This document shows positions 1 to 17,014 of a stretch of 20,000 nucleotides of DNA, piece by piece. A model generated the notes under the pieces. The model was not told where the DNA came from and searched no databases. It saw nothing but the letters and a program-made list of their open reading frames with translations. Both the position numbers and the translations under genes were made by a program. The stretch lies in the IMG/VR virus record IMGVR_UViG_2541047320_000011, positions 115,823 to 135,822 of that record, one strand, 5' to 3'. This DNA is from an uncultured virus (IMG/VR IMGVR_UViG_2541047320_000011) (lineage: Duplodnaviria > Heunggongvirae > Uroviricota > Caudoviricetes). Numbering within the stretch: the stretch's first letter is position 1; every line of letters begins with the position of its first letter.

Positions 1-372
1 TGGGATATAAAAAATGGAACTTTAACTAAAGTATTAGATATTTATAAGGAAATCATTTCAAATAAATTTTCAGATGTAACATTTTCAGGAGGAGACCCAC
101 TTCTACAACTGCAAGGATTTGTTCATTTAGCTAAATTAATTAAAAAGAATACAAACAAAACAATATGGTGTTATACAGGTTTTAAGTTTGAAGAACTCAT
201 AACAGACAATGAAAAGCTAGAATTGTTAAAATTAATAGATGTTCTTGTAGATGGAAAATTTGAAGAAGATAAAAAATCTTTAGAGTTAATTTTTAAAGGT
301 TCATCAAATCAAAGGATAATTGATGTTCAACAATCATTAAATAAAAAACAAGTAATACTATATATGAATTAA
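1..372 (+). CDS. nrdG: Anaerobic ribonucleoside-triphosphate reductase activating protein (radical SAM), 5'-truncated by window edge
   Basis: Manual frame-1 translation WDIKNG...VTFSGGDPLLQ...IWCYTGF...IDVLVDGKFEED...FKGSSNQRIIDV, typical NrdG C-terminal motifs; stop TAA 370-372. Confidence 0.93.
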   Translation, partial: WDIKNGTLTKVLDIYKEIISNKFSDVTFSGGDPLLQLQGFVHLAKLIKKNTNKTIWCYTGFKFEELITDNEKLELLKLIDVLVDGKFEEDKKSLELIFKGSSNQRIIDVQQSLNKKQVILYMN

Positions 373-393
373 GAAGGGAAATTTCCCTTCTTA
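370..393. repeat. Perfect 24-bp palindrome TAAGAAGGGAAA/TTTCCCTTCTTA
   Basis: Read directly; starts at the nrdG stop and abuts SD AGGAGGTG (393-400). Confidence 0.85.
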
Positions 394-404
394 GGAGGTG
401 ATTT

Positions 405-431
405 TTGACTAAAGAAGAATTTATGAAATAA
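405..431 (+). pseudogene. 8-codon micro-ORF or gene stump MTKEEFMK
   Basis: Strong SD AGGAGGTG 393-400, TTG 405, stop TAA 429-431 inside the left arm of the TAAAA-N6-TTTTAA motif. Confidence 0.4.
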
Positions 432-450
432 AATATGTGTTTTAATATGA
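429..450 (+). repeat. Intergenic motif copy 1: TAAAA-TATGTG-TTTTAA-TATGA
   Basis: Same pattern at 2289 and 3680. Confidence 0.7.
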
Positions 451-466
451 ATTGGAGGTAAAATTT

Positions 467-1000
467 ATGTTGAATTTATTAATAAAAGATATACATGGTG
501 GAGATACGATATATTGTATAAAAGATATTGAATGTTATAAAAAAGGAGAATTTTATACAGTAGGTACTGGAGAATATATAAGTCAATTTTATAAAATGAG
601 AGGTGGGACTACAATAGGGTATTGTTTCATTCGTGTGCCAACTGAAGATGAGCTAGAAAATGAATTTATTCAATTGAAGTTTTTAAAAGATGATTTATCT
701 AAAGATAATATTGCAGAAATAAATTGTAAAAATTTTCAAGAATTTAAAGATAAGATAGCATCTTGTGATTCAATATGTTTTTTACATAATAAAGATTTCA
801 ATTTTAGTGATTTGGATGATAATTTCATGAAAGATGTAATAATAGAATTTGGAGAAATAATAGATTGGGGAAGAAGAGTAAATCAATTGATTAATTTCAC
901 TAATTTATATATTAGGTCAGAAGATAAGCTTAAATCAATGACTAAAGAAGAAATAGAAGATGAATTAGGATATAAAATTAAAATAGCTTCTAAACAATAA
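467..1000 (+). CDS. Hypothetical phage protein with C-terminal MTKEEIEDELGYKIKI segment
   Basis: ORF track 452..1000; SD GGAGG 454-458 favours ATG 467. Confidence 0.8.
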   Translation: MLNLLIKDIHGGDTIYCIKDIECYKKGEFYTVGTGEYISQFYKMRGGTTIGYCFIRVPTEDELENEFIQLKFLKDDLSKDNIAEINCKNFQEFKDKIASCDSICFLHNKDFNFSDLDDNFMKDVIIEFGEIIDWGRRVNQLINFTNLYIRSEDKLKSMTKEEIEDELGYKIKIASKQ

Positions 1001-1017
1001 AGCGAGGTGATATTATA

Positions 1018-1824
1018 TTGAATATCTTCAATAAAAAATATGGTAGAAATGTAAAAATAACAGAGGCAGAACCTCCTTCTCCTCCTCCCAAACAACCAAA
1101 CTTCGATATGGATAATATACAATATGATAAAGAAATGAAAAGAAAGCTATTAGAAATGGAAAAAATAAAAATAGACTCAGAAATGAAAAAAAATAGTGAA
1201 GAATGGATTTGGATTGAAGGATATAAGGGTACAGATAGAGATATGAAATGTAGAAACTTTCAGTATGAACTAAATAAAACTTATAGTGTTGAAGAAATAC
1301 ATAGAGGAAATATAAATATATATGACTATGGATTCCATTTGTGTTTAGATTTAAAAGATGTTTTCAGATGTTATAATTTAAATTTAAGTAATAGATTTTT
1401 CAAAGTAAAAGCCTTAGTTAGAAGAGAGGATAAATATAAGTATGAGATGGAACAATCTTTTTCATCAATACGTCCAGGAGCAAAATATAGCATAGGTGCT
1501 AAAGAAATAATACTTTTTAGAGAATTAACTTTTGAAGAATTAAAACAAGATATCCAAGACAAGTTTCCTAAAATAAACAATGAACTGGAATGGAATCTTA
1601 TCAAAAAATTAGGTATTTATAAATATTACAATAAAATATTTATAAATAAAATGAAAGAAATTGGTTATTCAGATATTTTTTCACAGGTTTTATTTGATGA
1701 ATATCATCCGTTAATAAATCCACATAGAACTATGAATATACTTGACAAGGCAATTGCATATTCAAAAGAAAATTTATCTAAAGATATGATAATATATTTG
1801 CTTATGAAAGATATAAGAAAGTAA
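1018..1824 (+). CDS. Conserved phage hypothetical protein (YKG..KCR..QYE / GFH.C motif, DUF7666-like) with Pro-rich N-terminus
   Basis: 268-aa ORF, SD GAGGTG, TTG start; motif GYKGTDRDMKCRNFQYE...GFHLC...NRFFKV. Confidence 0.75.
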   Translation: MNIFNKKYGRNVKITEAEPPSPPPKQPNFDMDNIQYDKEMKRKLLEMEKIKIDSEMKKNSEEWIWIEGYKGTDRDMKCRNFQYELNKTYSVEEIHRGNINIYDYGFHLCLDLKDVFRCYNLNLSNRFFKVKALVRREDKYKYEMEQSFSSIRPGAKYSIGAKEIILFRELTFEELKQDIQDKFPKINNELEWNLIKKLGIYKYYNKIFINKMKEIGYSDIFSQVLFDEYHPLINPHRTMNILDKAIAYSKENLSKDMIIYLLMKDIRK

Positions 1825-1847
1825 CATCTTAAAAGAATGGAGATAAT

Positions 1848-2291
1848 ATGGACAAAATAAATAAGATAGATTTGATTAAGTTAAAAGAAATGAACATATA
1901 TGATAATTATCAATTAAAAAAAATAGCAAGTAAAATGATATTACATCTAAGATATGAAATAATGGATTTTTGTGGTTGTGGTTCTCCTGATGATATATCT
2001 TTTATGATAAAAGGAGTACTGACTGCAATACAAAATAAAGAGAAAAATTGTAATTTAGAATACACAGAAAGATGTTACATATTTGAAATAGAGTTTAATA
2101 ATGTTTGTGGAATAATTGGTAGTAAAAATAATTTGATACAAGAATTTATATTAAATGCTTTAAATTCATATGGGTTGTTAGAACATGGTAGTAGTATTTG
2201 GGGGTCATGGCTATCTGATTATGGTAAACAAATATTATGTGCTTTTGAAATAGTTGGTGACTGTATTTTAGATGTTAGCTATTTAGATTAA
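1848..2291 (+). CDS. Hypothetical phage protein (CGCGSP and EHGSSIWGSWL motifs)
   Basis: 147-aa ORF with GGAG SD. Confidence 0.8.
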   Translation: MDKINKIDLIKLKEMNIYDNYQLKKIASKMILHLRYEIMDFCGCGSPDDISFMIKGVLTAIQNKEKNCNLEYTERCYIFEIEFNNVCGIIGSKNNLIQEFILNALNSYGLLEHGSSIWGSWLSDYGKQILCAFEIVGDCILDVSYLD

Positions 2292-2310
2292 AAAGTTAGT
2301 TTTAATAGGA
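2289..2310 (+). repeat. Intergenic motif copy 2: TAAAA-AGTTAG-TTTTAA-TAGGA
   Basis: Left arm contains the upstream stop codon; right flank overlaps the SD of the next gene. Confidence 0.7.
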
Positions 2311-2320
2311 GGTGGTAATT

Positions 2321-2977
2321 ATTAAATATGTAATGAGTGACCTACATGGTATGTATGATAAATTCATTTCAATGTTAGAGAAAATCAATTTCAATTCAAA
2401 TGACCATTTATATATTTTAGGAGATGTATTAGATAGAGGGGATAAATCTTTAGAGATTATAGATTATATAAGAAAGTATAAGAATATAACTCTTCTAAAA
2501 GGTAATCATGAGTTAATGTTTCAAGAAAGTTATACAGATGTAAATAGTAGTTTTCTTTGGTTTTATAATGGAGGTAAAGATACATTTTATGATTTAGGAA
2601 TGAAGTCTTATGAATATAAAGAAAATTTTTATAAATATATTAAGAACCTTCCATATTTAGAGATAATAGATAATTTTATATTAGTTCATGCTGGACTATA
2701 CCTTCCAAATAACTATGAAAATCTCAGTATAGAGCAAATAATTGAGTTACAAGAAGAAGATATTTGTGTGTGGGATAGAGCAATATTAAATACTAATAAA
2801 CATATAAAAGGATACACAATTATTATTGGTCATACACCAACTCAAAACATTAAAGATTATGAAAAGGCTGAAATATATAAACAAGAAGGAATTATAGATA
2901 TAGACTGTGGAGCATGTTTTGATAATGGTAAGTTAGCTTGTTTAAGATTAGATGATATGAAAGAATTTTATATTTAG
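2321..2977 (+). CDS. Calcineurin-like metallophosphoesterase (PPP / lambda phosphatase-like)
   Basis: Motifs DLHG, GDVLDRG, GNHE, HAG, GHTP, IDCG; start uncertain (GTG 2312, ATT 2321 or ATG 2333). Confidence 0.92.
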   Translation: MKYVMSDLHGMYDKFISMLEKINFNSNDHLYILGDVLDRGDKSLEIIDYIRKYKNITLLKGNHELMFQESYTDVNSSFLWFYNGGKDTFYDLGMKSYEYKENFYKYIKNLPYLEIIDNFILVHAGLYLPNNYENLSIEQIIELQEEDICVWDRAILNTNKHIKGYTIIIGHTPTQNIKDYEKAEIYKQEGIIDIDCGACFDNGKLACLRLDDMKEFYI

Positions 2978-2986
2978 GAGGTATAT

Positions 2987-3241
2987 ATGATACAAGAAGT
3001 CAGACAAGAAATGCAATTAAAAAATGGTTTAGTTTTATATACAGGAGATATTATAAATGTAAAATATAAAACTATAGAAGATATAAAAGAACAATTTTGT
3101 AAGGGAAGATTAAAAAATGTAGATGAGCAATTTATACAACTAGATACAAGTGAAAAATATAATGCAACAGAAAAAACAATCTATGCATGGGATTTAATAG
3201 ATATAAAAAAGGTGAGTGATGAAAATGAAAAAAATAATTAA
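2987..3241 (+). CDS. Hypothetical protein
   Basis: 84-aa ORF, SD AGGAGG. Confidence 0.8.
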   Translation: MIQEVRQEMQLKNGLVLYTGDIINVKYKTIEDIKEQFCKGRLKNVDEQFIQLDTSEKYNATEKTIYAWDLIDIKKVSDENEKNN

Positions 3242-3560
3242 TAGTAAATATAGAGCCTTGTATTTGATAATATTTTTTCTAATATTTAATTTTGGATATA
3301 GTTTATATTTTGGAAGAAATACTGAAATTGGATTCTATTCTAATCCATCCTGTGTGGAAGAATATATATTAGATATTATAGTATTGATAGGAATATTCTT
3401 CTCAGTCATGTTAGCTAGTTTTGATATTACAAATAATTTTATTAATAATTTTAATAAAACAACAGCAGAAGAAAGTATTGAAATAAATGCTACAATTTCT
3501 AAAGAATTATATAAAGAAATTAAAGATGAAATAATGAAAGAAAATAGCATTAAAAATTAA
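3219..3560 (+). CDS. Hypothetical membrane protein (two predicted TM helices)
   Basis: Hydrophobic stretches ALYLIIFFLIFNFGYSLYF and ILDIIVLIGIFFSVMLASF; exact start uncertain. Confidence 0.75.
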   Translation: MKMKKIINSKYRALYLIIFFLIFNFGYSLYFGRNTEIGFYSNPSCVEEYILDIIVLIGIFFSVMLASFDITNNFINNFNKTTAEESIEINATISKELYKEIKDEIMKENSIKN

Positions 3561-3679
3561 TTAAAACAGCTAGATTTCAACGATGAGAGTGTTTGGTGCA
3601 AAAATGATGACAAAAGTAATCTGTAAAGAAAAGATTATAACACAAGGAAAACAAGGGTTTTAGAAAATCTAAATCACAA

Positions 3680-3701
3680 TAAAATGTGAATTTTAATAGG
3701 A
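3680..3701 (+). repeat. Intergenic motif copy 3: TAAAA-TGTGAA-TTTTAA-TAGGA
   Basis: Directly upstream of the gmk SD. Confidence 0.7.
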
Positions 3702-3716
3702 TTGGAGAGTGTTTAA

Positions 3717-4289
3717 ATGAATAAAATATTTGTATTTTTAGGATATTCAGGTTCAGGCAAAGACAGTATAGTAACAGAAATTTCAAAGCAATTCAATATT
3801 CCAATTCTAATATCACATACAACAAGACCTCCTCGTGGCCAATCAGAAATCATCAATAAAACCTATCATTTTGTAGATAATAAATTCTTTAAAAAAGAAA
3901 AAAATAATTTTATAGAAATGAGAAAATATATAGTTCATGATGGCGGCACTTGGCTATATGGTATACATAAATCTGAATTAGAGAATAAAAGATATGCTTT
4001 GGCTATAGTAGATGCAAGTGGATATAAGGCGTTAGAAAAATATTTTATAGGAACAAAAACTAAGTTAATACCATTTTTTATAAATACAGATGAAAATATA
4101 TTGAGAAAGAGACTTATTAATAGGGGTGATAATCCTAAAGAAATTGAGAGAAGATTAAAAGATGATAAGCTTAAGTTTAAAGATTTCCTAAATAATGAAA
4201 ATTATATTGCAATACCAAATAACACTAATCTAATTAATGCAGTAGAGCAAGTTAAAATACATATGAAAGAAGGGATTAAATGGTATTAG
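3717..4289 (+). CDS. gmk: Guanylate kinase-like NMP kinase
   Basis: P-loop GYSGSGKDS, SHTTRPPR, YHFV, WLYG, LRKRLINRGD...IERRL. Confidence 0.9.
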   Translation: MNKIFVFLGYSGSGKDSIVTEISKQFNIPILISHTTRPPRGQSEIINKTYHFVDNKFFKKEKNNFIEMRKYIVHDGGTWLYGIHKSELENKRYALAIVDASGYKALEKYFIGTKTKLIPFFINTDENILRKRLINRGDNPKEIERRLKDDKLKFKDFLNNENYIAIPNNTNLINAVEQVKIHMKEGIKWY

Positions 4290-4774
4290 CCTTAGATGTA
4301 TCGCTATCTTCAACTGGATGGGCAATTATAAATAGTAATAAAGAAATATTAGAATATGGAAAAATAGTAACTAAAAAGGAAAACTTCGATACTGAAGATG
4401 AGAGAATGTGCTATATCTGTAATACAATTCAAGAGATAATTACAACTCATAATATTCAAATAGTTTTAGTTGAAGACCAATTCACTTCAAGAAATTCTAA
4501 AACAATTCTTAGTTTAAGAAAACTCTTAGGAGCAATAATGAGAACTGTTAAATTAAATAATATAGAAATTGAATATATGTATCCAGTTTCTATTAGAAAA
4601 TATCTTATGAATAGTGGTAAAGTAAAAAAAGAAGAAGTAGCTATTTATGTAAGAGAAAATATTATTGATATTGGAGAGTACATTGATAGGACTTGTAAGG
4701 CTAAAACAAGTGATATATATGATGCTATAGCACTTGGGATAGCTTATTTAAACAAACTTAATACTAATAAATAA
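4280..4774 (+). CDS. ruvC: RuvC-like Holliday junction resolvase
   Basis: LALDVSLSSTGWA, VEDQF, KKEEV, DIYDAIALG acidic catalytic pattern. Confidence 0.85.
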   Translation: MVLALDVSLSSTGWAIINSNKEILEYGKIVTKKENFDTEDERMCYICNTIQEIITTHNIQIVLVEDQFTSRNSKTILSLRKLLGAIMRTVKLNNIEIEYMYPVSIRKYLMNSGKVKKEEVAIYVRENIIDIGEYIDRTCKAKTSDIYDAIALGIAYLNKLNTNK

Positions 4775-4797
4775 TTTTAAAAAGGGAGATTAAATTA

Positions 4798-5304
4798 ATG
4801 AGTATAAATATTAAAGTAAAAAAATTAAACCAAGATGCAATAGTACCATCTTATGCAAAAGAAGGTGATAGTGGGATAGATTTATATACACTGAAAGATA
4901 CAGTAATTCCAGCTAAGTCAACAGTAGCAATACCTACAGGTATAGCATTAGAAATTCCATATGGATATGAAATGCAAGTCAGACCTAGAAGTGGTATAAG
5001 CTTAAAAGGAATGTTATTTACAAGAGATGCGACTGTATGTGATAAAGAGCAACTTAAAAAACAAATTAGAAAAGCTTTTGTAGTACATCCAACTGTGCGA
5101 CTAGGTACGATAGATTCGGGATATCGAGGTGAAATTAAAATAATTACATATAATGAAGAGAATTTTGAGATTCTAATTTCTAAGAACACTAAATTAGCTC
5201 AAGGTGTATTTCAACAAGTTCCAAGAGCTATATTAAAAGTTGTAGATGAATTGACTAGCTCTGAAAGAGGTAATAGTGGTTTTGGAAGTACTGGTATAAA
5301 ATAA
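4798..5304 (+). CDS. dut: Trimeric dUTPase
   Basis: Motifs SGIDL, RPRSG, GTIDSGYRGEI, LAQGV, RGNSGFGSTG. Confidence 0.95.
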   Translation: MSINIKVKKLNQDAIVPSYAKEGDSGIDLYTLKDTVIPAKSTVAIPTGIALEIPYGYEMQVRPRSGISLKGMLFTRDATVCDKEQLKKQIRKAFVVHPTVRLGTIDSGYRGEIKIITYNEENFEILISKNTKLAQGVFQQVPRAILKVVDELTSSERGNSGFGSTGIK

Positions 5305-5444
5305 TGCCTAAATATATAATCCTAGAAAAATACAATTATTACTATGATGACAAGTGTCATACTTTATATCATTTAGAAAATATCTATACAGGATTAAGAT
5401 TTTCTATTGAAAAAAATGAATTAGAGTACTATAATATATCCTAG
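5304..5444 (+). CDS. Small hypothetical protein, 46 aa (MPKYIILEKYNYYYDD...)
   Basis: Manual translation; ATG overlaps the dut stop (TAATG). Confidence 0.55.
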   Translation: MPKYIILEKYNYYYDDKCHTLYHLENIYTGLRFSIEKNELEYYNIS

Positions 5445-5467
5445 ACTAACTTTGGGAGGAGTATTAA

Positions 5468-5641
5468 ATGTACAGATATGATGATTATGTAAATTTAATA
5501 AATGACTTAGAGTTACCAGAAGAAATTAGGAATAAATGTGTTAGAGTTGTAATGACATTGGAAAATATGCAAGATATTATGGTTGTTCATAAATTTAAAA
5601 CGTATGTTGTTAATGAAAAATACATTGAAAAAGTAGCATAA
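5468..5641 (+). CDS. Small hypothetical protein, 57 aa (MYRYDDYVNLINDLELP...)
   Basis: Manual translation; SD GGAGG about 8 nt upstream. Confidence 0.7.
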   Translation: MYRYDDYVNLINDLELPEEIRNKCVRVVMTLENMQDIMVVHKFKTYVVNEKYIEKVA

Positions 5642-5649
5642 AACTGATT

Positions 5650-5683
5650 AAGTCATCTATTAATTTAGGTGGCTTTTTTATTT
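5650..5683 (+). terminator. Intrinsic terminator ending the early operon
   Basis: Stem AAGTCATCTA/TAGGTGGCTT (with G-U pairs) followed by a T-run. Confidence 0.75.
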
Positions 5684-5684
5684 A

Positions 5685-5744
5685 TGTCGAATATTTCATC
5701 TACTTCATATTGTATTAGACGCTATAATTAAAATATATGTCGAA
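5685..5744 (+). promoter_or_regulatory. Putative promoter of the NERD gene flanked by two TGTCGAA (Spo0A-box consensus) sites
   Basis: TGTCGAA at 5685-5691 and 5738-5744; TATAAT at 5723-5728; no good -35. Confidence 0.45.
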
Positions 5745-5750
5745 AGGTAG

Positions 5751-6509
5751 ATGGTGAGGATGTTTAAGGAGATATTTGAAAAGGTATTTATGTCAGAAGA
5801 GATTAGTAAAACTGTAAAAGAAGTTAATAATATTATTAAGGATACTAAGATACAAGTAAAAGGTGGATTTGGAGAACTTAGATTAGATTTTATACTTAGC
5901 AGATTAGGCAAAGATTACATAATAATTAAAGACATTATTGTACCAGGCTCAAATAAGACTACACAAATTGATAGTATTGTGATTTCTATGTATGGAATAT
6001 TTGTTATAGAATGTAAAAATTTTAGTGGATATATTTACGGAAATGATAAAGATAAAGTATGGACTCAAATTGTAGGAAAAACTAAAAGTACATTCTATAA
6101 TCCGGTAAGACAAAATTATGCTCATATTAAAGCAATAGAAAATATAATAGGAAATAAATATAATATATATTCAATAATTGTTTTTTCAGACAAAGCTACA
6201 CTAAAAAATGTAATGATAAGTGGAAATAATATTAGAGTTATAAATGAAAGTGAAATATTAAGTACAATAAGTAAATGCAAAGATGTGACTATTGATAAAG
6301 AAGAAATAAAAATTATCAGAGATAAAATTTTTGATTGTATGAAAACCACTAATCAAAATACTAGAGAGCATGTTAGAAATTTAAAAAATATTACTGAAGA
6401 GGATAAATGTCCTAGATGTCAAATTGGACATTTGATTAAAAGAAAAGGTCAGTATGGTGAATTTTGGGGATGTAGTCAATATCCAAAATGTAAATATACT
6501 AGAAAATAA
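5751..6509 (+). CDS. NERD-domain nuclease-related protein with C-terminal topoisomerase-type C4 zinc ribbon
   Basis: KGGFGE, TTQIDSIVIS.YGIFVIECKN, FYNPVRQN..H; C-terminal CPRC...GEFWGCSQYPKC. Confidence 0.9.
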   Translation: MVRMFKEIFEKVFMSEEISKTVKEVNNIIKDTKIQVKGGFGELRLDFILSRLGKDYIIIKDIIVPGSNKTTQIDSIVISMYGIFVIECKNFSGYIYGNDKDKVWTQIVGKTKSTFYNPVRQNYAHIKAIENIIGNKYNIYSIIVFSDKATLKNVMISGNNIRVINESEILSTISKCKDVTIDKEEIKIIRDKIFDCMKTTNQNTREHVRNLKNITEEDKCPRCQIGHLIKRKGQYGEFWGCSQYPKCKYTRK

Positions 6510-6529
6510 AAAACAACCTCTTAAATTCG

Positions 6530-6551
6530 ATTTTAAGGCTTTGTAAAAATT
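6530..6551 (+). repeat. Left inverted repeat flanking the integrase (ATTTTAAGGCTTTGTAAAAATT)
   Basis: Reverse complement of 7970-7991 at 21/22; 18-bp perfect core. Confidence 0.8.
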
Positions 6552-6626
6552 AATACTTATAATTAATCCTATTCAGAAATTTGATTGCTTAAAACGCAAA
6601 ATATAAAAAAATAATAAATTACTAGT

Positions 6627-6659
6627 ATAAGACATAGAATTGTGTATTCTATGTCTTAT
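6627..6659. terminator. 14-bp stem hairpin, probable terminator for the NERD gene
   Basis: ATAAGACATAGAAT-TGTGT-ATTCTATGTCTTAT followed by T-rich sequence. Confidence 0.65.
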
Positions 6660-6757
6660 TTCTTTATAATTAAGTAATTTCAATAATTATATAAATAAAA
6701 GAATTAAAAAAGTCAGTTGAAAGTCAGCTAAAATGACTATTTTTTGCCTCCTCTGTA

Positions 6758-6766
6758 TGGTATAAT
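6758..6766 (+). promoter_or_regulatory. Extended -10 promoter (TGGTATAAT) for the integrase
   Basis: TGnTATAAT about 30 nt upstream of SD AGGAGG / ATG 6798. Confidence 0.6.
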
Positions 6767-6797
6767 AAGTATATGAATTTTCATAGGAGGGATAACC

Positions 6798-7910
6798 ATG
6801 AACGCTTTTATAAGAAAAAGAAATAAAAATTATGTAGTGTACTTAGAATTTAGAGATGATGAATCAGGAAAAAGAAAACAAAAAAATATGGGAGCATTTG
6901 ATAAAAAAAGAGATGCTAATAAAAGATTGGCTGAAGTTAAGGACAGTATATATAAAGATAGTTTTCTTGTCCCAAATGAAATCACTCTAGCTGGATTTCT
7001 ATTAGACTTTCTTGAAAAATATAAAGATAATATTTCGGCATCTACATATAAAAGCTATATTGCTATTTGTAAAAATCATATTAATCCTTCTATTGGAAAA
7101 TATCGTCTTCAAGAGTTGAGAAATATTCATATACAGAATTATATAGATGATTTAGCTGGTAACTTAAACCCTCAAACTATTAAAGTACATATAAATGTAT
7201 TGAGACTTGCAATAAAGAGAGCGTATAGAATTAAGTTAATAAAAGAAAATATTATAGATGGAATAGAGAGTCCAAGAATTAAAAAATTTAAAAATGAAAT
7301 TTATGATAAAGAGCATATGTTAAAATTATTAGAAGTAGCTAAAGGAACTAATCTTGAGCTTCCTATTAGTTTGGCTATAGGTCTAGGATTGAGACTTTCA
7401 GAAGTTTTGGGATTAACTTGGGATAATATTGATTTTGATGAAAATACAATAACAGTAAATAAGATAACTAGTAGATTAGATGGTTCTGTTATACTTAAAG
7501 AGCCAAAGACAGAAAGCTCTGTTAGAAAAATATTTGCACCAATAGAGCTTATGAATTTACTAAAAAATTATAGGCTGGAGCAGAATAAGAAGTTATTGAG
7601 AAGTATTGTTAGAAATGAATATAACTTACTATTTTTTGATAGAAAAGGGAATCCAATTGCTGAAGATGTAATGAGTAAGAAATTTAGAAAATTCTTAGAG
7701 AATAATGACTTGCCTCATATTAGATTTCATGACTTAAGACATTCGCACGTTACTTTACTTATAAATTCTAAAGTACCTATAAAAGTTATATCTGAAAGGG
7801 TAGGACATTCAAATATTAATACTACTCTTAATGTATATTCTCATGTACTTAAAGAAATGGACAAAGAAGCTTCTGATAGAATATCTGAAAACTTATTTAA
7901 GGCTAATTAA
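6798..7910 (+). CDS. int: Tyrosine site-specific integrase (arm-binding N-terminus, ICEBs1/Tn916-like)
   Basis: GLRLSE, KEPKT, HDLRHS, RVGHSN, VYSH catalytic R-K-H-R-H-Y set. Confidence 0.95.
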   Translation: MNAFIRKRNKNYVVYLEFRDDESGKRKQKNMGAFDKKRDANKRLAEVKDSIYKDSFLVPNEITLAGFLLDFLEKYKDNISASTYKSYIAICKNHINPSIGKYRLQELRNIHIQNYIDDLAGNLNPQTIKVHINVLRLAIKRAYRIKLIKENIIDGIESPRIKKFKNEIYDKEHMLKLLEVAKGTNLELPISLAIGLGLRLSEVLGLTWDNIDFDENTITVNKITSRLDGSVILKEPKTESSVRKIFAPIELMNLLKNYRLEQNKKLLRSIVRNEYNLLFFDRKGNPIAEDVMSKKFRKFLENNDLPHIRFHDLRHSHVTLLINSKVPIKVISERVGHSNINTTLNVYSHVLKEMDKEASDRISENLFKAN

Positions 7911-7969
7911 TAATTATTATCAATAAATACAAAATTAATAATAAAAGCAAAGGTATAAACATAAAGGGG

Positions 7970-7991
7970 AATTTTTACAAAGCCTTAGAAT
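7970..7991 (-). repeat. Right inverted repeat flanking the integrase (AATTTTTACAAAGCCTTAGAAT)
   Basis: Pairs with 6530-6551. Confidence 0.8.
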
Positions 7992-8047
7992 GGCATATAG
8001 AGCGTCAGATTTTAGAAGATATTAAAATTTTATATTTCCAATATTTA

Positions 8048-8056
8048 TGATATAAT
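8048..8056 (+). promoter_or_regulatory. Extended -10 (TGATATAAT) of the type I toxin mRNA
   Basis: Upstream of a structured 5' UTR. Confidence 0.6.
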
Positions 8057-8146
8057 AAACATAGCAAGGAATAAATATTTGAAAAAAGCTGTGAGTGGTG
8101 TTTCCATAGAAATTTCCTCACTTTCTTATGAAAGGAGGTGAAAACT

Positions 8147-8281
8147 ATGGAAAATCTAATGATGAGTATTATAGCTGGTGTTATAGCTAGTTATATCTAC
8201 GATAAATTAAAATGCCACTCTGAGCGACCAACTAAGAGTGGCTGGGAACTTAATATTAAGTTCCATAAAAACAAACATTAA
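8147..8281 (+). CDS. Type I toxin-antitoxin toxin, 44 aa (MENLMMSIIAGVIASYIYDKLKCHSERPTKSGWELNIKFHKNKH)
   Basis: Manual translation (absent from ORF track); SD AAAGGAGGTG; hydrophobic N-terminus and basic KSGWE..IKFHK tail resemble C. difficile type I toxins. Confidence 0.85.
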   Translation: MENLMMSIIAGVIASYIYDKLKCHSERPTKSGWELNIKFHKNKH

Positions 8282-8333
8282 TAACTAATTAATGGAAACA
8301 TCACTCAAAGTTAAGTAAAATATGTTTCCTTGC
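8210..8333 (-). ncRNA. Putative antisense antitoxin RNA (ends approximate)
   Basis: Minus-strand TGGTATAAT at 8346-8338; hairpins GGAACTTAATATTAAGTTCC (8245-8264) and GCCACTC...GAGTGGC (8214-8242) as candidate terminators. Confidence 0.65.
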
Positions 8334-8486
8334 TTTTATTATACCACAAATTAAGAATATTAAAACAAAATTTTGTAAATACATACTTAATTATCAATTT
8401 AATCATTTGGAAAAAATTGGATTTGATTGTATGAAATTATTGCTGTAATATTTAAATTAAATAAACAAATGATGGGAGAGATAATT

Positions 8487-8864
8487 ATGTATTTAAGAAA
8501 ATTATCAAAGTCAGAATTAATTGTAATGAAATTTATATGGAATTTAGATACAAAAGTAAAATCATATCAAATCATTAATTATATGAAAGAAAAATATAGT
8601 TGGTCAGAAAAAACAACATTAAAAACTTTATCTAAGTTATCAAATAAAAGGTTCATATATGTTCAAGAAACAAGTCAATGTACATACTATACAATTTCAA
8701 TTAAAGAAGATAAGTATCATGAATTTATATCACAAAAAATACATAAGCTCTTAGGGTGCAATTCTATAAAAAGCCTTTTAGCATCATTGTTTCAAGAAGA
8801 ATTAACAGATGAAAAAATAACTTCATTGGAAGAATGGGTAAAAAACTGGGAAGAAGAGGAATAA
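8487..8864 (+). CDS. BlaI/MecI/CopY-family transcriptional repressor
   Basis: LSKSELIVMKFIW...WSEKTTLKTLSKLSNKRFI; SD GGGAGAG favours ATG 8487. Confidence 0.88.
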   Translation: MYLRKLSKSELIVMKFIWNLDTKVKSYQIINYMKEKYSWSEKTTLKTLSKLSNKRFIYVQETSQCTYYTISIKEDKYHEFISQKIHKLLGCNSIKSLLASLFQEELTDEKITSLEEWVKNWEEEE

Positions 8865-8954
8865 AGATAATATATACTATTCCTTAAAAATCTATTTAAA
8901 GAATAATTGAAATTTTGATTTTAATATAATTTCTTTAATCAACTCTAACATACA

Positions 8955-8996
8955 AAAATAAGACTCTTTTCAATATTAACTAAAGAGCCTTATTTT
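8955..8996. terminator. Terminator between the convergent BlaI-like and cwp genes (possibly bidirectional)
   Basis: AAAATAAGACTCTTT...AAAGAGCCTTATTTT inverted repeat with A/T runs on both sides. Confidence 0.7.
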
Positions 8997-9004
8997 ATAA
9001 TTGA

Positions 9005-10267
9005 TTATATTTTAGTTAACTTTTGTGTATCAAAACTATACTCATATACTTCTAATGTTTCAGAATTTACAATTAGAGTTCCTACTGTTTTAATGCTATC
9101 TTCTTTATCAGTATAAGTATCAGAACCATCAGTGCTAGATTCATCTTGTTTAACATTTTTAACACTGATTATTTCAAACTCATAGTGTGGAAAATCTATA
9201 TTTTCAGCTTTTTTATATCTTGAGTTACCATAATTATATGTATAACAATATTCATGTGCTTTTGAACCTTTTGCTTTATATATAGCATCTAAAGCTTTTG
9301 AGATGTCACTTCTTTTAGTATTACCAGTTAACATATAATCTGGAGTTAAGCATTGGTCTAAAATTTCATTTTTTATATCACCTATTATTATTGGGAAATT
9401 AGCACTAGTAACTAATGATTTGTCATTAGTTTCATTTACTAAAAATACAGGATATTCTTTGTGTATTGTAGAAGATAATAGTGCATCTATTAAATTATCA
9501 GAACTTACAATACATATTTGATTTGGATGTTTTAATTCATCTTTATAAAAATGCTTAATTATTTTTTCATTAGTGTCAAGTCTATCAACACCACCAATTC
9601 TAGTTGCTTTTGTACTGTTCACTAAAGAGTCGTTTATTGATGCTGTTCCTCCAATAGCATATGTTTTTACCCCATCTGTTTTAAATGGTATATTCTTTCC
9701 ATTTGTTAATACAACTGGATTTTTATATTTAGCAGCAACTGGAGATATACTTATAGAATCAGCTTCTCCTTGATAAGCATTTGTAAAATATACTTCATCA
9801 ACCTTTTTTAGATTGCTTATTTCTTTTGCAACATTATAACTTGTGTCTATTCTGTCTCTTCCTTCTATCCTAATAACCTTTATTTTTTTGTTTTTTAGTA
9901 TATTTTCTACATTTTTGCTTATAGAATTAACTCCACCTATTAAATAGATTTTTTTAAATTTATCTAATCTTTTAAGAGTAGAATTTGGTATAGAATTTTG
10001 TTTAGTAAGTAATATTGGCGAGTTAGAAGCTCCAGCTAAACCACTAGCACTCAACCCATCTGCAAGACTTTTATCTGTGTTTATAATTATTGCTTGGGTG
10101 TATTTTCTTCTGTCTGCTATTAAACCTGCTGTTTCATACTTATTTGCTCCTTGTATTCTATGAGCTGGAGGTCTAAATTTTAGTTCTTTAGCTGAAACTA
10201 ATAATGTGCTAGACATGACAATAGAAGATATTATAGCTAAGGTTAATGCTTTTCTTTTGAATTTCAT
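9005..10267 (-). CDS. Secreted cell wall protein with three cell-wall-binding-2 (CWB2) repeats and a unique C-terminal domain
   Basis: Signal peptide MKFKRKALTLAII...; RIQGANKYET, RIEGRDRIDT, RIGGVDRLDT; PILL-like motifs SPILLT, NPVVLT, YPVFLV; SD GGAGG favours ATG 10267. Confidence 0.92.
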   Translation of the reverse strand: MKFKRKALTLAIISSIVMSSTLLVSAKELKFRPPAHRIQGANKYETAGLIADRRKYTQAIIINTDKSLADGLSASGLAGASNSPILLTKQNSIPNSTLKRLDKFKKIYLIGGVNSISKNVENILKNKKIKVIRIEGRDRIDTSYNVAKEISNLKKVDEVYFTNAYQGEADSISISPVAAKYKNPVVLTNGKNIPFKTDGVKTYAIGGTASINDSLVNSTKATRIGGVDRLDTNEKIIKHFYKDELKHPNQICIVSSDNLIDALLSSTIHKEYPVFLVNETNDKSLVTSANFPIIIGDIKNEILDQCLTPDYMLTGNTKRSDISKALDAIYKAKGSKAHEYCYTYNYGNSRYKKAENIDFPHYEFEIISVKNVKQDESSTDGSDTYTDKEDSIKTVGTLIVNSETLEVYEYSFDTQKLTKI

Positions 10268-11511: not shown

Positions 11512-12459
11512 TTATAAACCTATCATATCTTTAGACTTAGAAATTTTGCCTTTGTCTTCTTTTATATAAATCTTAGTTGTATCAGTGGATTCGTGATTGA
11601 GGATAGTTGATATATCTTCAAGTGGTAAATTATTCGCTTTAGCTATAGTTGCAAAACTTCTTCTTAATGAATGGGGAGCTAAGTTATCTATATCTATTAA
11701 TTTACCAGCTTTCTTAGCCCAACTTCTTAATACATTAGATGTAGCCTTATGATATTCTTTATCATATTTAACTAAGAAAACATAATCATTTACTATATCT
11801 TCTTTTTTTCTAACTTCTTTAAGTTTTAGTAATAAATCTTTTACTTTCTCACTAAAATAAAAATCTACTATTTTCCCACCTTTTTCTTTAATATTTTCAC
11901 ATACTCTATTATCAAAGTCTATATTATCCCATCTTAAATTACTTGTGGCTGTAACTCTACCAGCAGTTGATAGAGCAAAATTTATATAAACCTCTAATTG
12001 TAAATCATCTCGTTTTGATAACTTATCTTGTAGCTCTTTAGCCTGTTCTATATTCAAGAAATGTTTTTCCACAACAGGTAAACCCTTTTTAGGTCTTTCG
12101 ATTAGAGATACTGGATTCTCTGTAACAATTCTCTTCCTTCTAAGATGGTCATATAGAGATGAAATGCCTGAAAATATTACTTTTATTCTATTAACATGAT
12201 TGTCCTCCATCCTAAATGAAATATATTCCATTATATCGTCTTCAGTACAATCTTCGATTAATAAATCCTCCATTTCATCATGCAGATATTTAGCCCAAGT
12301 ATATAAGTCACATTTATATACATATATAGTTTTTTCACTTAAACCAGCTATTTTCTTAGCTTGAAGAAATCCTTTAATTAACTTTTCATTATTTTTATTT
12401 ATGTTGCCTTCTATCTTAATTCTTTTACTTCTTTTTTCAAATGTTGCCAAATACTTCAC
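11512..12459 (-). CDS. XerC/D-like tyrosine recombinase (no arm-binding domain)
   Basis: GRVTA, EKGGK, HSLRRS, LNHES, IYIK catalytic residues; start may be TTG 12450. Confidence 0.92.
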   Translation of the reverse strand: MKYLATFEKRSKRIKIEGNINKNNEKLIKGFLQAKKIAGLSEKTIYVYKCDLYTWAKYLHDEMEDLLIEDCTEDDIMEYISFRMEDNHVNRIKVIFSGISSLYDHLRRKRIVTENPVSLIERPKKGLPVVEKHFLNIEQAKELQDKLSKRDDLQLEVYINFALSTAGRVTATSNLRWDNIDFDNRVCENIKEKGGKIVDFYFSEKVKDLLLKLKEVRKKEDIVNDYVFLVKYDKEYHKATSNVLRSWAKKAGKLIDIDNLAPHSLRRSFATIAKANNLPLEDISTILNHESTDTTKIYIKEDKGKISKSKDMIGL

Positions 12460-14777: not shown

Positions 14778-15098
14778 TTATAACACGTTATTTGTGTTAA
14801 GTTCTAACATAGCAATTCTATAAGCATTATCTACTAATAAACTGTCTTGTTGCTTTTGATTTTCTATTAAAATTGTAATTTTATCCGCATTTATTTCCTC
14901 TATGCTTGGTTTAGGTGGATTATTTTGTAATTCTATCCACTCATTATAAACCTGTTCTCCTGTTTTAATTAGCTCTCCGTTTTTTATCACTGGAGTAAAT
15001 ATTTTTTTACCCTCTGCAATAAAGTAATTATCTATATTATTTAAATCATTCTCAAATCCATATTCTATTAAAATTTCTATTTTCTTTTCTATATCCAT
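14778..15098 (-). CDS. Tail-fibre-associated hypothetical protein (putative chaperone)
   Basis: ORF track 14778..15146; SD GAAAGGA favours ATG 15098; C-terminal coiled coil. Confidence 0.7.
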   Translation of the reverse strand: MDIEKKIEILIEYGFENDLNNIDNYFIAEGKKIFTPVIKNGELIKTGEQVYNEWIELQNNPPKPSIEEINADKITILIENQKQQDSLLVDNAYRIAMLELNTNNVL

Positions 15099-15112
15099 CT
15101 TATTTTTCCTTT

Positions 15113-17014
15113 CTAAATTAAATAGTTTACATATAAATACAACCAACTACGATAAGTTATATCATTATAATATATCTCAATTTCTCCATTTGTACGGATG
15201 ATTCCGTTATAATACTTTCCATCTGTTGTTTGAAATATTACTATTATGCCTTTACGAGGTGCATATTTTGAAGGTATCTTTCCAATGATAGTACCTGCCG
15301 TTGTAATACCTCCATTAATAGTTGCATTAATTGTTACAAGGTTATTATTTGTGCAATAGTTTCCAACAGAACTAGCATATCCAAGATATGGCTGCCACCC
15401 ATTAAGAAAGTTTATTGAAAATGGAAAATCAGTTCTAACATTGTAATTTTTTATATTATTTCTGATAACTTCTATATGACTTCCTAAATTTTGTGTACTT
15501 TCAAAACTAATGTCTGGTATCACAATACCTGTGTTGCAAATAAATTTAGTTTGATTATTATATTGTTCTAAATTTAGTGATGTTAATTCAATTTCTTGTG
15601 GTTTTGAAAGTTGATAGATGATAGTTATTGGATTATTTTTTATCCATTCACTAAACCCATTTCCATCTTGTGTAGTAAGTTTACTTTTTAATATTTTAAA
15701 TGCTATATCACCACTACCAGTAGTTGAGCATCCCTCTATGTCATTATTGTTAAAATCATTTCTACTTTTCCCATTTAAATTATTACATAAAACATATGCT
15801 GTGTCTAAACTATCTACAACAGCTTGAGGAGTTAATGTTCCCATAAATTGCAGAGTATTATCATATACATGTGATAAATTAAGATTTCCAATATCAGTAT
15901 AAGTATGTTCCTCACATCTTTTTATTAAGTAATATTTATCATTTTTATAAACTATTTCATCTTTTACTCCATTTGGTAAACTTCTTAATGTATATGGAAT
16001 TGTCTTTTTATCATATTTATTTCCTTTAGTTATAATTGTTTTATTCCCATTATCATGTAAATCTTTTATTATAGTAACTCTTAGATACTTTGCATTTTTA
16101 GGGCTTCTAGCAATATAAAAAATATCTTTATCTCCTATTATTCTTTCGTTTAATGATGCTGGTATAAAATTTTTATTTATATCATACCAACAAATATTTC
16201 TACTGCAATTATAAAAAGTATACTCTGTATCTGGTTCTATTTCTATATAGTCTAGGGTATATTTATGATTACTAGCTTCAGAAATAAGTTCCTCTCCACT
16301 AAGATATTGTAAAATATAATTATCTTTAAAATCGGCATTCTTATTAAAGATATTAATTCCACTATATTGATAACTTAAAAATTCTATTTTATCTCTTTGC
16401 CCAACACTTAATAGTTCATTAGAGTAATCTATATTAATATCTGTATAATCTCCTTCTAATATGGTAATTTTCAAACTTATTTCATAACCAGATGTAAGTG
16501 TATCGTTATCTAAAACACTCCTTAAAACAACATTACAATCATTTAAGTCTGATATTGTTGTAAATGTATATTTAAATTTACCAATTACTCCTCCTGGTAT
16601 AGCTATATTTGTCAGATTAGGAATAAATACTGAATTTTCTTCGCCTAAGCTATGAATATATATTCCACTTGTACTCGGTAAAGTGTTTTTATCAACATCA
16701 ACTATGATTGTATATATGGTATCTGGTTTATATGAAGTGTAATTGATTGTAAAAAAATTAGAATATCTTATATCATTTTCTGTTAGTATATTTATTTTTC
16801 CATCCACAAAAGTTGCTTTCCATAAAGAAAAATCTGAACTAGTTTTTCCCCATAAATCAATTAATGTCTTTCCTTCTACATTAAAATTAGTTAAATAGCC
16901 CTTTTTACTATTTTCTATAGTATATTCTCCTGTATCAGTACTACATTTTATATTGTCAACCTCCTTGAGATTTTCTATATCATTGACCTTTTTAAGTAAA
17001 TCTTTATATATCAA
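15113..17014 (-). CDS. Putative tail fibre / receptor-binding protein
   Basis: 633 aa, beta-rich; VEGKTL, LRSLPNGVKDEI, NPITIIYQL and C-terminal NGW...IPSKYAP segments typical of clostridial phage tail proteins; genomic position. Confidence 0.7.
   Translation of the reverse strand: MIYKDLLKKVNDIENLKEVDNIKCSTDTGEYTIENSKKGYLTNFNVEGKTLIDLWGKTSSDFSLWKATFVDGKINILTENDIRYSNFFTINYTSYKPDTIYTIIVDVDKNTLPSTSGIYIHSLGEENSVFIPNLTNIAIPGGVIGKFKYTFTTISDLNDCNVVLRSVLDNDTLTSGYEISLKITILEGDYTDINIDYSNELLSVGQRDKIEFLSYQYSGINIFNKNADFKDNYILQYLSGEELISEASNHKYTLDYIEIEPDTEYTFYNCSRNICWYDINKNFIPASLNERIIGDKDIFYIARSPKNAKYLRVTIIKDLHDNGNKTIITKGNKYDKKTIPYTLRSLPNGVKDEIVYKNDKYYLIKRCEEHTYTDIGNLNLSHVYDNTLQFMGTLTPQAVVDSLDTAYVLCNNLNGKSRNDFNNNDIEGCSTTGSGDIAFKILKSKLTTQDGNGFSEWIKNNPITIIYQLSKPQEIELTSLNLEQYNNQTKFICNTGIVIPDISFESTQNLGSHIEVIRNNIKNYNVRTDFPFSINFLNGWQPYLGYASSVGNYCTNNNLVTINATINGGITTAGTIIGKIPSKYAPRKGIIVIFQTTDGKYYNGIIRTNGEIEIYYNDITYRSWLYLYVNYLI

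Follow-up and report, generated by a model that had tools for sequence, protein, structure and literature searches.

The stretch of DNA analysed here, called the window throughout, is the final 20 kb of a 135.8-kb virus record (IMG/VR IMGVR_UViG_2541047320_000011, here G000), and the subject of this study is a short motif, TAAAA-N6-TTTTAATA, which recurs between its genes. The kin of the window are the large Clostridioides difficile phages phiCD211/phiCDIF1296T, LIBA2945, LIBA6276 and AR1086-1, and the relatives match positions 1-9000 with about 92-94% identity across 73-83% of the sequence. According to a crude map of 169 open reading frames (ORFs), the genome of G000 is laid out as minus-strand blocks at 0-56 kb and 125-136 kb, and one plus-strand block of about 95 genes at 62-125 kb. 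The plus-strand block contains anti-restriction, anti-repressor, nucleotide-metabolism, recombination (Erf, RuvC) and replication genes; the recombination genes of the phage are Erf, RuvC and an exonuclease. Positions 1-8900 of the window close this block with nrdG, several unknowns, a Ser/Thr phosphatase, gmk, ruvC, dut, a NERD protein, an integrase and a BlaI-like regulator. The motif copies in the window and the elements beside them are listed below (SD, Shine-Dalgarno sequence).

373..390, plus strand: perfect 18-nt palindrome, a terminator-like hairpin directly after nrdG (1-372)
405..431, plus strand: 8-codon gene remnant; phiCD211 and ES-S-0107-01 have the small gene whole, downstream of nrdG
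429..447, plus strand: motif copy 1, TAAAATATGTGTTTTAATA, followed by the SD GGAGG at 454-458 and an ATG at 467
2289..2307, plus strand: motif copy 2, TAAAAAGTTAGTTTTAATA, whose TAA is the stop codon of ORF 1848-2291; GGAGG follows immediately
3680..3698, plus strand: motif copy 3, TAAAATGTGAATTTTAATA, followed by the SD GGAGAG and the guanylate kinase gene gmk (3717-4289)
8908..8926, plus strand: degenerate copy (TGAAA...), with 1 mismatch and a score of 15.2 bits, where the plus-strand gene block ends; no gene comes after it
14865..14883, minus strand: fourth exact copy, in sense orientation within ORF 14778-15146 (minus strand), with no SD after it

A repeated, oriented motif at gene starts

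The three intergenic copies and the degenerate one were already described in the initial annotation, with the positions and sequences given above, and its count was incomplete in one respect, as the fourth exact copy on the minus strand had been missed. This fourth copy also exists in phiCD211 and is possibly not functional, and the degenerate copy is kept in the related loci L001, L002 and L004. As described earlier, the right flank enters an SD in all three of the intergenic copies. The proposal that the left arm supplies the stop codon of the upstream gene holds for copy 2; at copy 1, however, nrdG ends at 372 and the TAA at 429-431 closes the 8-codon remnant. A terminator-like prediction overlaps the palindrome between nrdG and this remnant. 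The gene after copy 2 encodes the Ser/Thr phosphatase (2312/2321-2977). It has no ATG at the usual distance from its strong SD; the start options are GTG at 2312, an in-frame ATT at 2321 and a distant ATG at 2333, and the annotated starts of relatives differ.

The expected enrichment of the motif was borne out. Compared to a mean of 0.12 in 200 dinucleotide-preserving shuffles, in which the largest count was 2 and none reached 4, the window holds 4 exact matches; with one mismatch allowed there are 9 matches versus 2.02 expected, a number reached by 1 of the 200 shuffles. The exact 6-bp spacing was likewise confirmed by a scan of TAAAA-N(gap)-TTTTA at 60-125 kb of the genome, where 18 matches were found at gap 6 versus 1-5 at each gap of 3-5 and 7-10 bp. 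Moreover, the motif ranks first in an unbiased dyad count of the early block (20 versus 6 in a Markov control). In the whole of G000, 12 exact copies exist, 11 forward and 1 reverse, and the reversed-pattern control gave 0. Five relatives carry 9-13 copies each with a strong strand bias, compared to 0-1 in the controls. A weight matrix returned 14 plus-strand and 3 minus-strand sites at 17 bits or more in G000, and its Markov controls gave 0-1 sites at a 16-bit threshold. An exact copy at genome position 38051 (plus strand) lies antisense inside a conserved minus-strand structural gene; three relatives retain this copy, with small differences in the spacer.

The sites share an extended consensus of about 27 bp, AAGTAnT-TAAAAT-N4-A-TTTTAATA-tRA, which is wider than the motif first described. 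It includes a 7-4-7 palindrome (TTAAAAT/ATTTTAA) with conserved, asymmetric outer flanks. The perfectly inverted part is only 5-7 bp per arm, and the element of 19-27 bp is almost pure A/T. Position 6 of TAAAAT is variable (T, A, G or C), and the 13 strong sites in G000 all differ in spacer.

The motif is not a feature of the host. One host chromosome of 4.17 Mb contains 22 matches versus 18 in its whole-genome reversed control, and a second host genome contains 13 versus 26, whereas a 132-kb phage plasmid within one of the two host assemblies carries 14 copies. An SD plus start codon follows the motif in just 1 of 30 host contexts examined. These chance-level host counts, together with the 14 copies on the phage plasmid, suggest that the reader of the motif is probably phage-encoded. 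An exact-pattern scan of viral contigs hit at least 122 stretches, nearly all of them single matches in unrelated contigs, and is uninformative on the distribution of the motif. No description of the motif was found in full-text searches on phiCD211/phiCDIF1296T, although an earlier description in other phiCD211 papers is possible; in a paper on related phages (PMC5786514), the words "promoter" and "motif" occur 0 times.

The 63-kb early/replication block on the plus strand contains about 13 strong sites, placed between a stop codon and the next SD. At most strong sites the upstream stop codon is -3 to 31 nt from the motif, some of them overlapping it, and the SD starts 0-9 nt after the motif. 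Across five genomes, an SD-like sequence plus a start codon within 12 nt was found in 36 of 66 unique contexts, compared to 7.2% of 5000 random positions. Conserved copies with no SD or gene after them occur at 8908 and at genome position 112024, and a terminator hairpin comes after copies in phiCD211 and pCD1602_4. The motif is thus real, oriented, family-wide and phage-specific, and it is tied to gene starts as well as to the module boundaries considered below.

Such a placement could be explained by an RNA-level element in the polycistronic early mRNA, either the operator of a translational regulator, comparable in logic to the RegA sites of phage T4, or a processing or stability signal. 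At strong early-block sites the motif has the orientation of the genes and directly adjoins the SD (0-9 nt in 36 of the 66 contexts), a sigma-A promoter signature is absent, and in several cases the site runs into the 3' end of the gene before it, which puts those sites inside transcripts. However, the predicted hairpin is marginal, with a mean minimum free energy of -1.3 kcal/mol and -2.2 at the best site, the arms carry no compensatory changes, the copies without a following SD or gene (8908, genome 112024, and those in phiCD211 and pCD1602_4) do not suit such a role, and no RNA-binding protein was identified. An RNA-level function is considered unlikely. As to the narrower identity of a stable RNA hairpin, the mean folding energy rules it out.

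A promoter consisting of a -10 element only, recognised by the host RNA polymerase with an unrecognised phage sigma factor or activator, appears distinctly improbable. T4 late promoters need only a -10-like element, and the motif is gene-oriented, intergenic, AT-rich and contains both TAAAAT and TTTTAATA; copy 1, furthermore, comes after a terminator-like hairpin. Against this, neither a sigma factor nor an RNA polymerase was found by Pfam (169 ORFs) or PHROGs (77 ORFs, mostly early-block), and the DxDGD motif is present in none of the ORFs. At copy 2 the SD follows at 0 nt, and a transcription start 6-7 nt downstream would remove it; the variable position 6 of TAAAAT is also difficult to reconcile with a -10 element. 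A canonical sigma-A promoter was rejected as no -35-like hexamer is enriched. A sigma-70 consensus scan of window positions 1-9500 gave 66 sites versus 77.4 expected, which is uninformative because the DNA is AT-rich.

Module boundaries and recombination

Identical 19-mers, spacer included, are joined to unrelated flanks on one or both sides in different relatives. Three distinct left flanks adjoin copy 1 in G000, phiCD211 and LIBA6276, and the homology of relatives starts at 414 or at 426, the latter 3 nt before the copy. At copy 2, homology to L004 starts at 2287 and to L005 at 2284, that is 2-5 nt before the copy, with different genes upstream. Copy 3 with its SD is found elsewhere before a small hypothetical gene in five relatives (L002-L007) and before a Dam methylase gene in phiCD211. 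At 65.8-67.3 kb, the site order TCAAC, ATTAA, GAATGA, TATAT is conserved in three genomes, with spacings between the four sites of 412/677/347, 412/302/731 and 193/486/1025; the ORFs between them belong mostly to unshared families (BLASTP) and their proteins are unrelated. Where phiCD211 has three sites, LIBA6276 has one, with the left flank and spacer of the first and the right flank of the third. The crossover in this chimeric site fell within 11 shared bases, TTTTAATATAA. This event joined sites with different spacers, whereas orthologous sites in relatives share spacers.

Taken together, the same 19-mers with swapped flanks, the conserved order and the chimeric site indicate from sequence comparison that the motif marks the boundaries of exchangeable gene blocks. 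The initial annotation had proposed such boundaries, and the recurrence of these 19-mers in unchanged order, with differing genes in between, agrees with that general idea. The particular blocks it named as exchange units, 467-2291 and 2321-3560, did not survive, as breakpoints lie inside them at 561/916, 1811, 2968-2989 and 3442-3451.

The motif is present at 12 of the 93 junctions of the plus-strand block and missing at the other 81. Motif-less junctions are broken in 61-79%, and the entire block is mosaic. Ends of high-scoring segment pairs within -12 to +40 nt number 33 at 13 motif sites versus 11 at 10 sites of a second repeated motif, (C/A)AACTAAATAAAATA(C/T), described below; when one second-motif site that overlaps a site of the first motif was left out, the control stood at 7 at 9 sites. 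Crossovers were also located outside the motif. An 11-mer at 414-424, beside copy 1, is common to the gene remnant 405-431 and the LIBA6276-type flank and represents a crossover outside the motif, and the deletion placing copy 3 beside gmk runs between two ATGAATA start regions and not through the motif. Crossovers of this size, about 11 bp, whether within the motif or beyond it, agree with short-homology recombination.

Two further observations pertain to these junctions. The nrdD-nrdG module (window 1-431; genome 113454-116246; 2.8 kb, 97% identical) occupies another genome position in phiCD211, and its nrdG end is likewise relocated in ES-S-0107-01; in G000 the module ends 5 nt before copy 1, leaving the 8-codon remnant. 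At genome position 100261, G000 and the orthologous site of LIBA6276 have the same flanks, with the spacer TGATAA in the former and its reverse complement TTATCA in the latter, a difference suggestive of a very small inversion between the inverted arms.

Both tyrosine recombinases attributed to the window by the initial annotation are indeed encoded there.

6798..7907, plus strand: tyrosine integrase with arm-binding domain, 94-100% identical in four relatives
11515..12459, minus strand: XerC/XerD-like tyrosine recombinase, of two types among relatives (95-99% or 44% identity)

The same annotation had envisaged an integron-like array of cassettes served by one of them. The likeness to attC/attI sites is that same-orientation sites stand at ORF junctions before apparently promoterless genes, with variable content between sites. 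The phage differs in having no IntI-type integrase, in lacking the motif at 81 of 93 junctions and in not swapping the blocks as units. Furthermore, attC is an imperfect inverted repeat of 57-141 bp with a GTTRRRY core, whereas the phage motif comprises 19-27 bp of A/T with perfect arms of 5-7 bp and has no attC-like anatomy. With the NCBIfam integron-integrase model, the two window recombinases score 67 and 29.8 bits and a third recombinase 44.6 bits, all far under the cut-off of 265, and an identity as integron integrase was rejected for all three. With 12 of 93 junctions bearing the motif, 13 spacers that all differ and low integrase scores, an integron-like mechanism is not supported.

A dedicated site-specific recombination site, at which the conserved integrase or another recombinase exchanges strands at the 6-bp spacer, is a different proposal and is also judged unlikely, clearly so. 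The spacer would serve as an address, and only like-numbered sites of co-infecting relatives would recombine. In partial likeness to dif and loxP, inverted arms surround a 6-bp centre and the outer arms are asymmetric, here with conserved flanks; a given spacer keeps its position from relative to relative, with both flanks changing, and breakpoints are denser than at the other repeated motif. The integrase is 94-100% conserved although related phages are described as extrachromosomal in PMC5786514. Several findings speak against the proposal. The perfect inversion is just 5-7 bp per arm, compared to arms of 11-13 bp in dif and loxP, and every spacer differs among the 13 strong sites of one genome. 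The single clear inter-site event joined unlike spacers, the junction beside copy 1 arose through an 11-bp microhomology located outside the motif, and motif-less junctions, which are the large majority, break at 61-79%. The low scores against the integron-integrase model count against it too.

In a variant of this idea, which is doubtful as well and likewise distinctly unlikely, the motif is an addressable recombination site where the integrase, or a 190-aa protein acting as a guide, promotes exchange and the spacer is the address. If true, co-infecting relatives would swap content between like-numbered sites while each genome is spared self-deletion, and the system would represent a phage-borne, integron-independent form of ordered cassette exchange.

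The repressor homologue and the second motif

G000 encodes a homologue of the integrase-fold master repressors SroF, MrpR and YopR, so the operator of this protein was considered as a further identity of the motif.

Genome 74538-75428 (L011:17538-18428), plus strand: SroF/YopR/MrpR homologue of 297 aa, supported by profile and Foldseek matches

The profile matches of the 297-aa protein are PDB 9RD5_H (E=6.9e-10), YopR (4e-6) and MrpR (1.4e-5), its top Foldseek match is 9rd5_H (7.6e-7), and I124/M125 stands where the first catalytic arginine aligns. A true XerC/D-like recombinase (L011:16342-17337) adjoins it. The repressor homologue, this XerC/D-like neighbour and a LuxR-type 433-aa gene (54702-56003, minus strand) fall into the same two types among relatives.

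According to PMC10516654 and bioRxiv 10.1101/2025.11.27.690993, MrpR (YopR, SroF) binds the SPBRE/Phi3TRE boxes of SPbeta-like phages. In both cases an AT-rich box is scattered over many intergenic sites of a large temperate phage of Firmicutes, and G000 encodes a homologue of the repressor. The SroF boxes are long, AT-rich and dispersed, and by eye the extended motif and the phi3T box given in the preprint share AGTAAT and TTAAT ends. An SPBRE-like box is nevertheless a very improbable identity for the motif. The protein occurs in two types, with 93-99% identity in two relatives and 30-32% in two others, and the residues at aligned base-reading positions differ between the types, yet the two groups, with 39 and 24 unique contexts, show one and the same motif profile. 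In contrast to the boxes of that system as far as they are described, the motif neither co-varies with the repressor type nor lies in promoters, while the second motif does both. An SroF-like repressor operator was rejected on these two points, the constant profile across repressor types and the missing promoter signal.

The second motif emerged when further repeated words between genes were sought. With up to 2 mismatches allowed, it has 15 sites in G000 (loci L009-L014) versus 2 in phiCD211; the genome positions of the second-motif sites are as follows, with minus-strand sites marked (-).

Second-motif sites: 34809(-), 54300(-), 56159(-), 56278(-), 60162, 65796, 73239, 73276
Second-motif sites, continued: 76034, 82064, 82162, 101807, 112094, 113397(-), 113444

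Several of these sites lie between sigma-A-like -35 and -10 hexamers and so overlap promoter-like sequences. The second motif is present in three genomes with one SroF-like type and at background in two with the other type. It is likely the operator of the SroF-like master repressor.

A proposed binding site that may double as a recombination linker

The reading preferred here, with a probability of about 0.4, is that a phage protein binds the first motif at gene starts and that the motif serves at the same time as a linker for short-homology recombination. A conserved, phage-encoded protein would dock at the motif, and its binding would control expression of the following gene. Many gene starts carry near-identical copies of 19-27 bp, and sequence comparison shows that modules are joined at these copies by short-homology recombination, a process for which Erf, RuvC and an exonuclease are encoded by the phage. 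A cassette-like mosaic results, in which the sites form a fixed scaffold and the genes between them vary. The initial annotation named a regulator binding site as the main alternative to its own proposal. In its general form this alternative turned out to be the better fit; as for the regulator, there are candidates only.

Of the 169 ORFs, only 19 reach an identity of 70% or more in every one of the four relatives. In this set, the clear sequence-specific DNA-binding candidates are a 190-aa protein and the window integrase; RuvC is also conserved and was set aside. By elimination the 190-aa protein is the best candidate for the docking protein, and the conserved integrase would be the alternative candidate.

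Genome 72592-73164, outside the window: 190-aa protein, winged helix-turn-helix/ribbon-helix-helix-like (wHTH/RHH) by prediction

Its structural model has a confident N-terminal winged-helix segment and a strand-helix-helix C-terminus that is predicted to be ribbon-helix-helix-like. Some NCBI records name this protein "integrase", a name without family-model support. The LuxR-type 433-aa protein was rejected as a reader: it co-varies with the repressor type (36-37% versus 88-92% identity) and is therefore unfit for an invariant motif. Likenesses to CodY, LexA, IHF, CsrA, LytTR and Type I restriction sites were considered and dropped as apparently poor fits.

Several results weigh against the preferred reading. 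The model of the 190-aa protein is poor overall (pLDDT 60.7), no Foldseek match at E of 0.001 or less was found for it, its NCBIfam and Pfam matches are all below cut-off, and the Atlas RHH/HTH leads are weak, below 0.9. A regulator acting on the DNA is also difficult to position. Enrichment of -35-like hexamers at 16-18 bp from three -10 candidates was not found, with a mean best match of 2.2-2.6 of 6 positions versus 2.63 at random, and with an SD 0-9 nt after the motif a transcription start would have scarcely any space. Neither the motif nor a replacement motif is present in a contig that encodes a homologue of the 190-aa protein with 45% identity, which is neutral at best. As for recombination, the predicted coincidence of breakpoints with the motif stood in part. 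All 12 motif-bearing junctions are broken in one or more of four relatives, compared to 54 of the 81 others (p=0.016), and counted per comparison, broken junctions are 28 of 33 versus 122 of 201 (p=0.019). Junctions without the motif are broken almost as often, however, once length is considered: among junctions of at least 35 nt, 26 of 30 with the motif are broken versus 89 of 112 others (permutation p=0.25), and the length-controlled comparison for any relative gives 11 of 11 versus 36 of 42 (p=0.32). The excess of breakpoints at motif junctions thus vanishes after control for junction length.

The best reading of the motif by analogy is that it resembles in its working the PeSL regulatory cassettes, and not an integron. 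According to PMC2839356, PeSLs (promoter-early stem-loops) are mobile regulatory cassettes of T4-type phages which bound indels and replacements between close relatives; each combines a strong sigma-70 promoter with a terminator stem-loop, and mini-circles were demonstrated. As there described, both elements recur as short, conserved sequences between genes in variable regions of high gene density, bounding indels or replacements between relatives, and in both, recombination between repeats was deduced from chimeric junctions. The phage motif differs from the PeSL of that account in having no -35 signal and no stable hairpin and in abutting the SD.

Apart from these subjects, two other features of the genome can be mentioned. 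A match to RNA 2'-phosphotransferase (Tpt1/KptA) is divided over ORFs L012:1246-1422 and L012:1557-1841 (profile positions 3-38 and 95-176), suggesting that the gene may be broken or interrupted. An IS200/IS605-type pair, a Y1 transposase with a 482-aa partner, lies at L012:9133-10841 (genome 85133-86844); it is 100% identical to the phiCD211 copy and absent from three other relatives.

Large plasmid-like C. difficile phages carry many accessory genes, and how these genes are traded is poorly understood. In the phages compared here, a fixed scaffold of signals is observed between which the genes have been replaced, and single crossovers can be mapped to about 11 bases. Judged from sequence, the most economical reading is a putative protein-binding element at gene starts that doubles as a short-homology linker. 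The linker model of phage mosaicism is thereby made directly testable in a Gram-positive system, and the separation of two dispersed motifs provides targets for binding and reporter work on the silencing and expression of phage genes.

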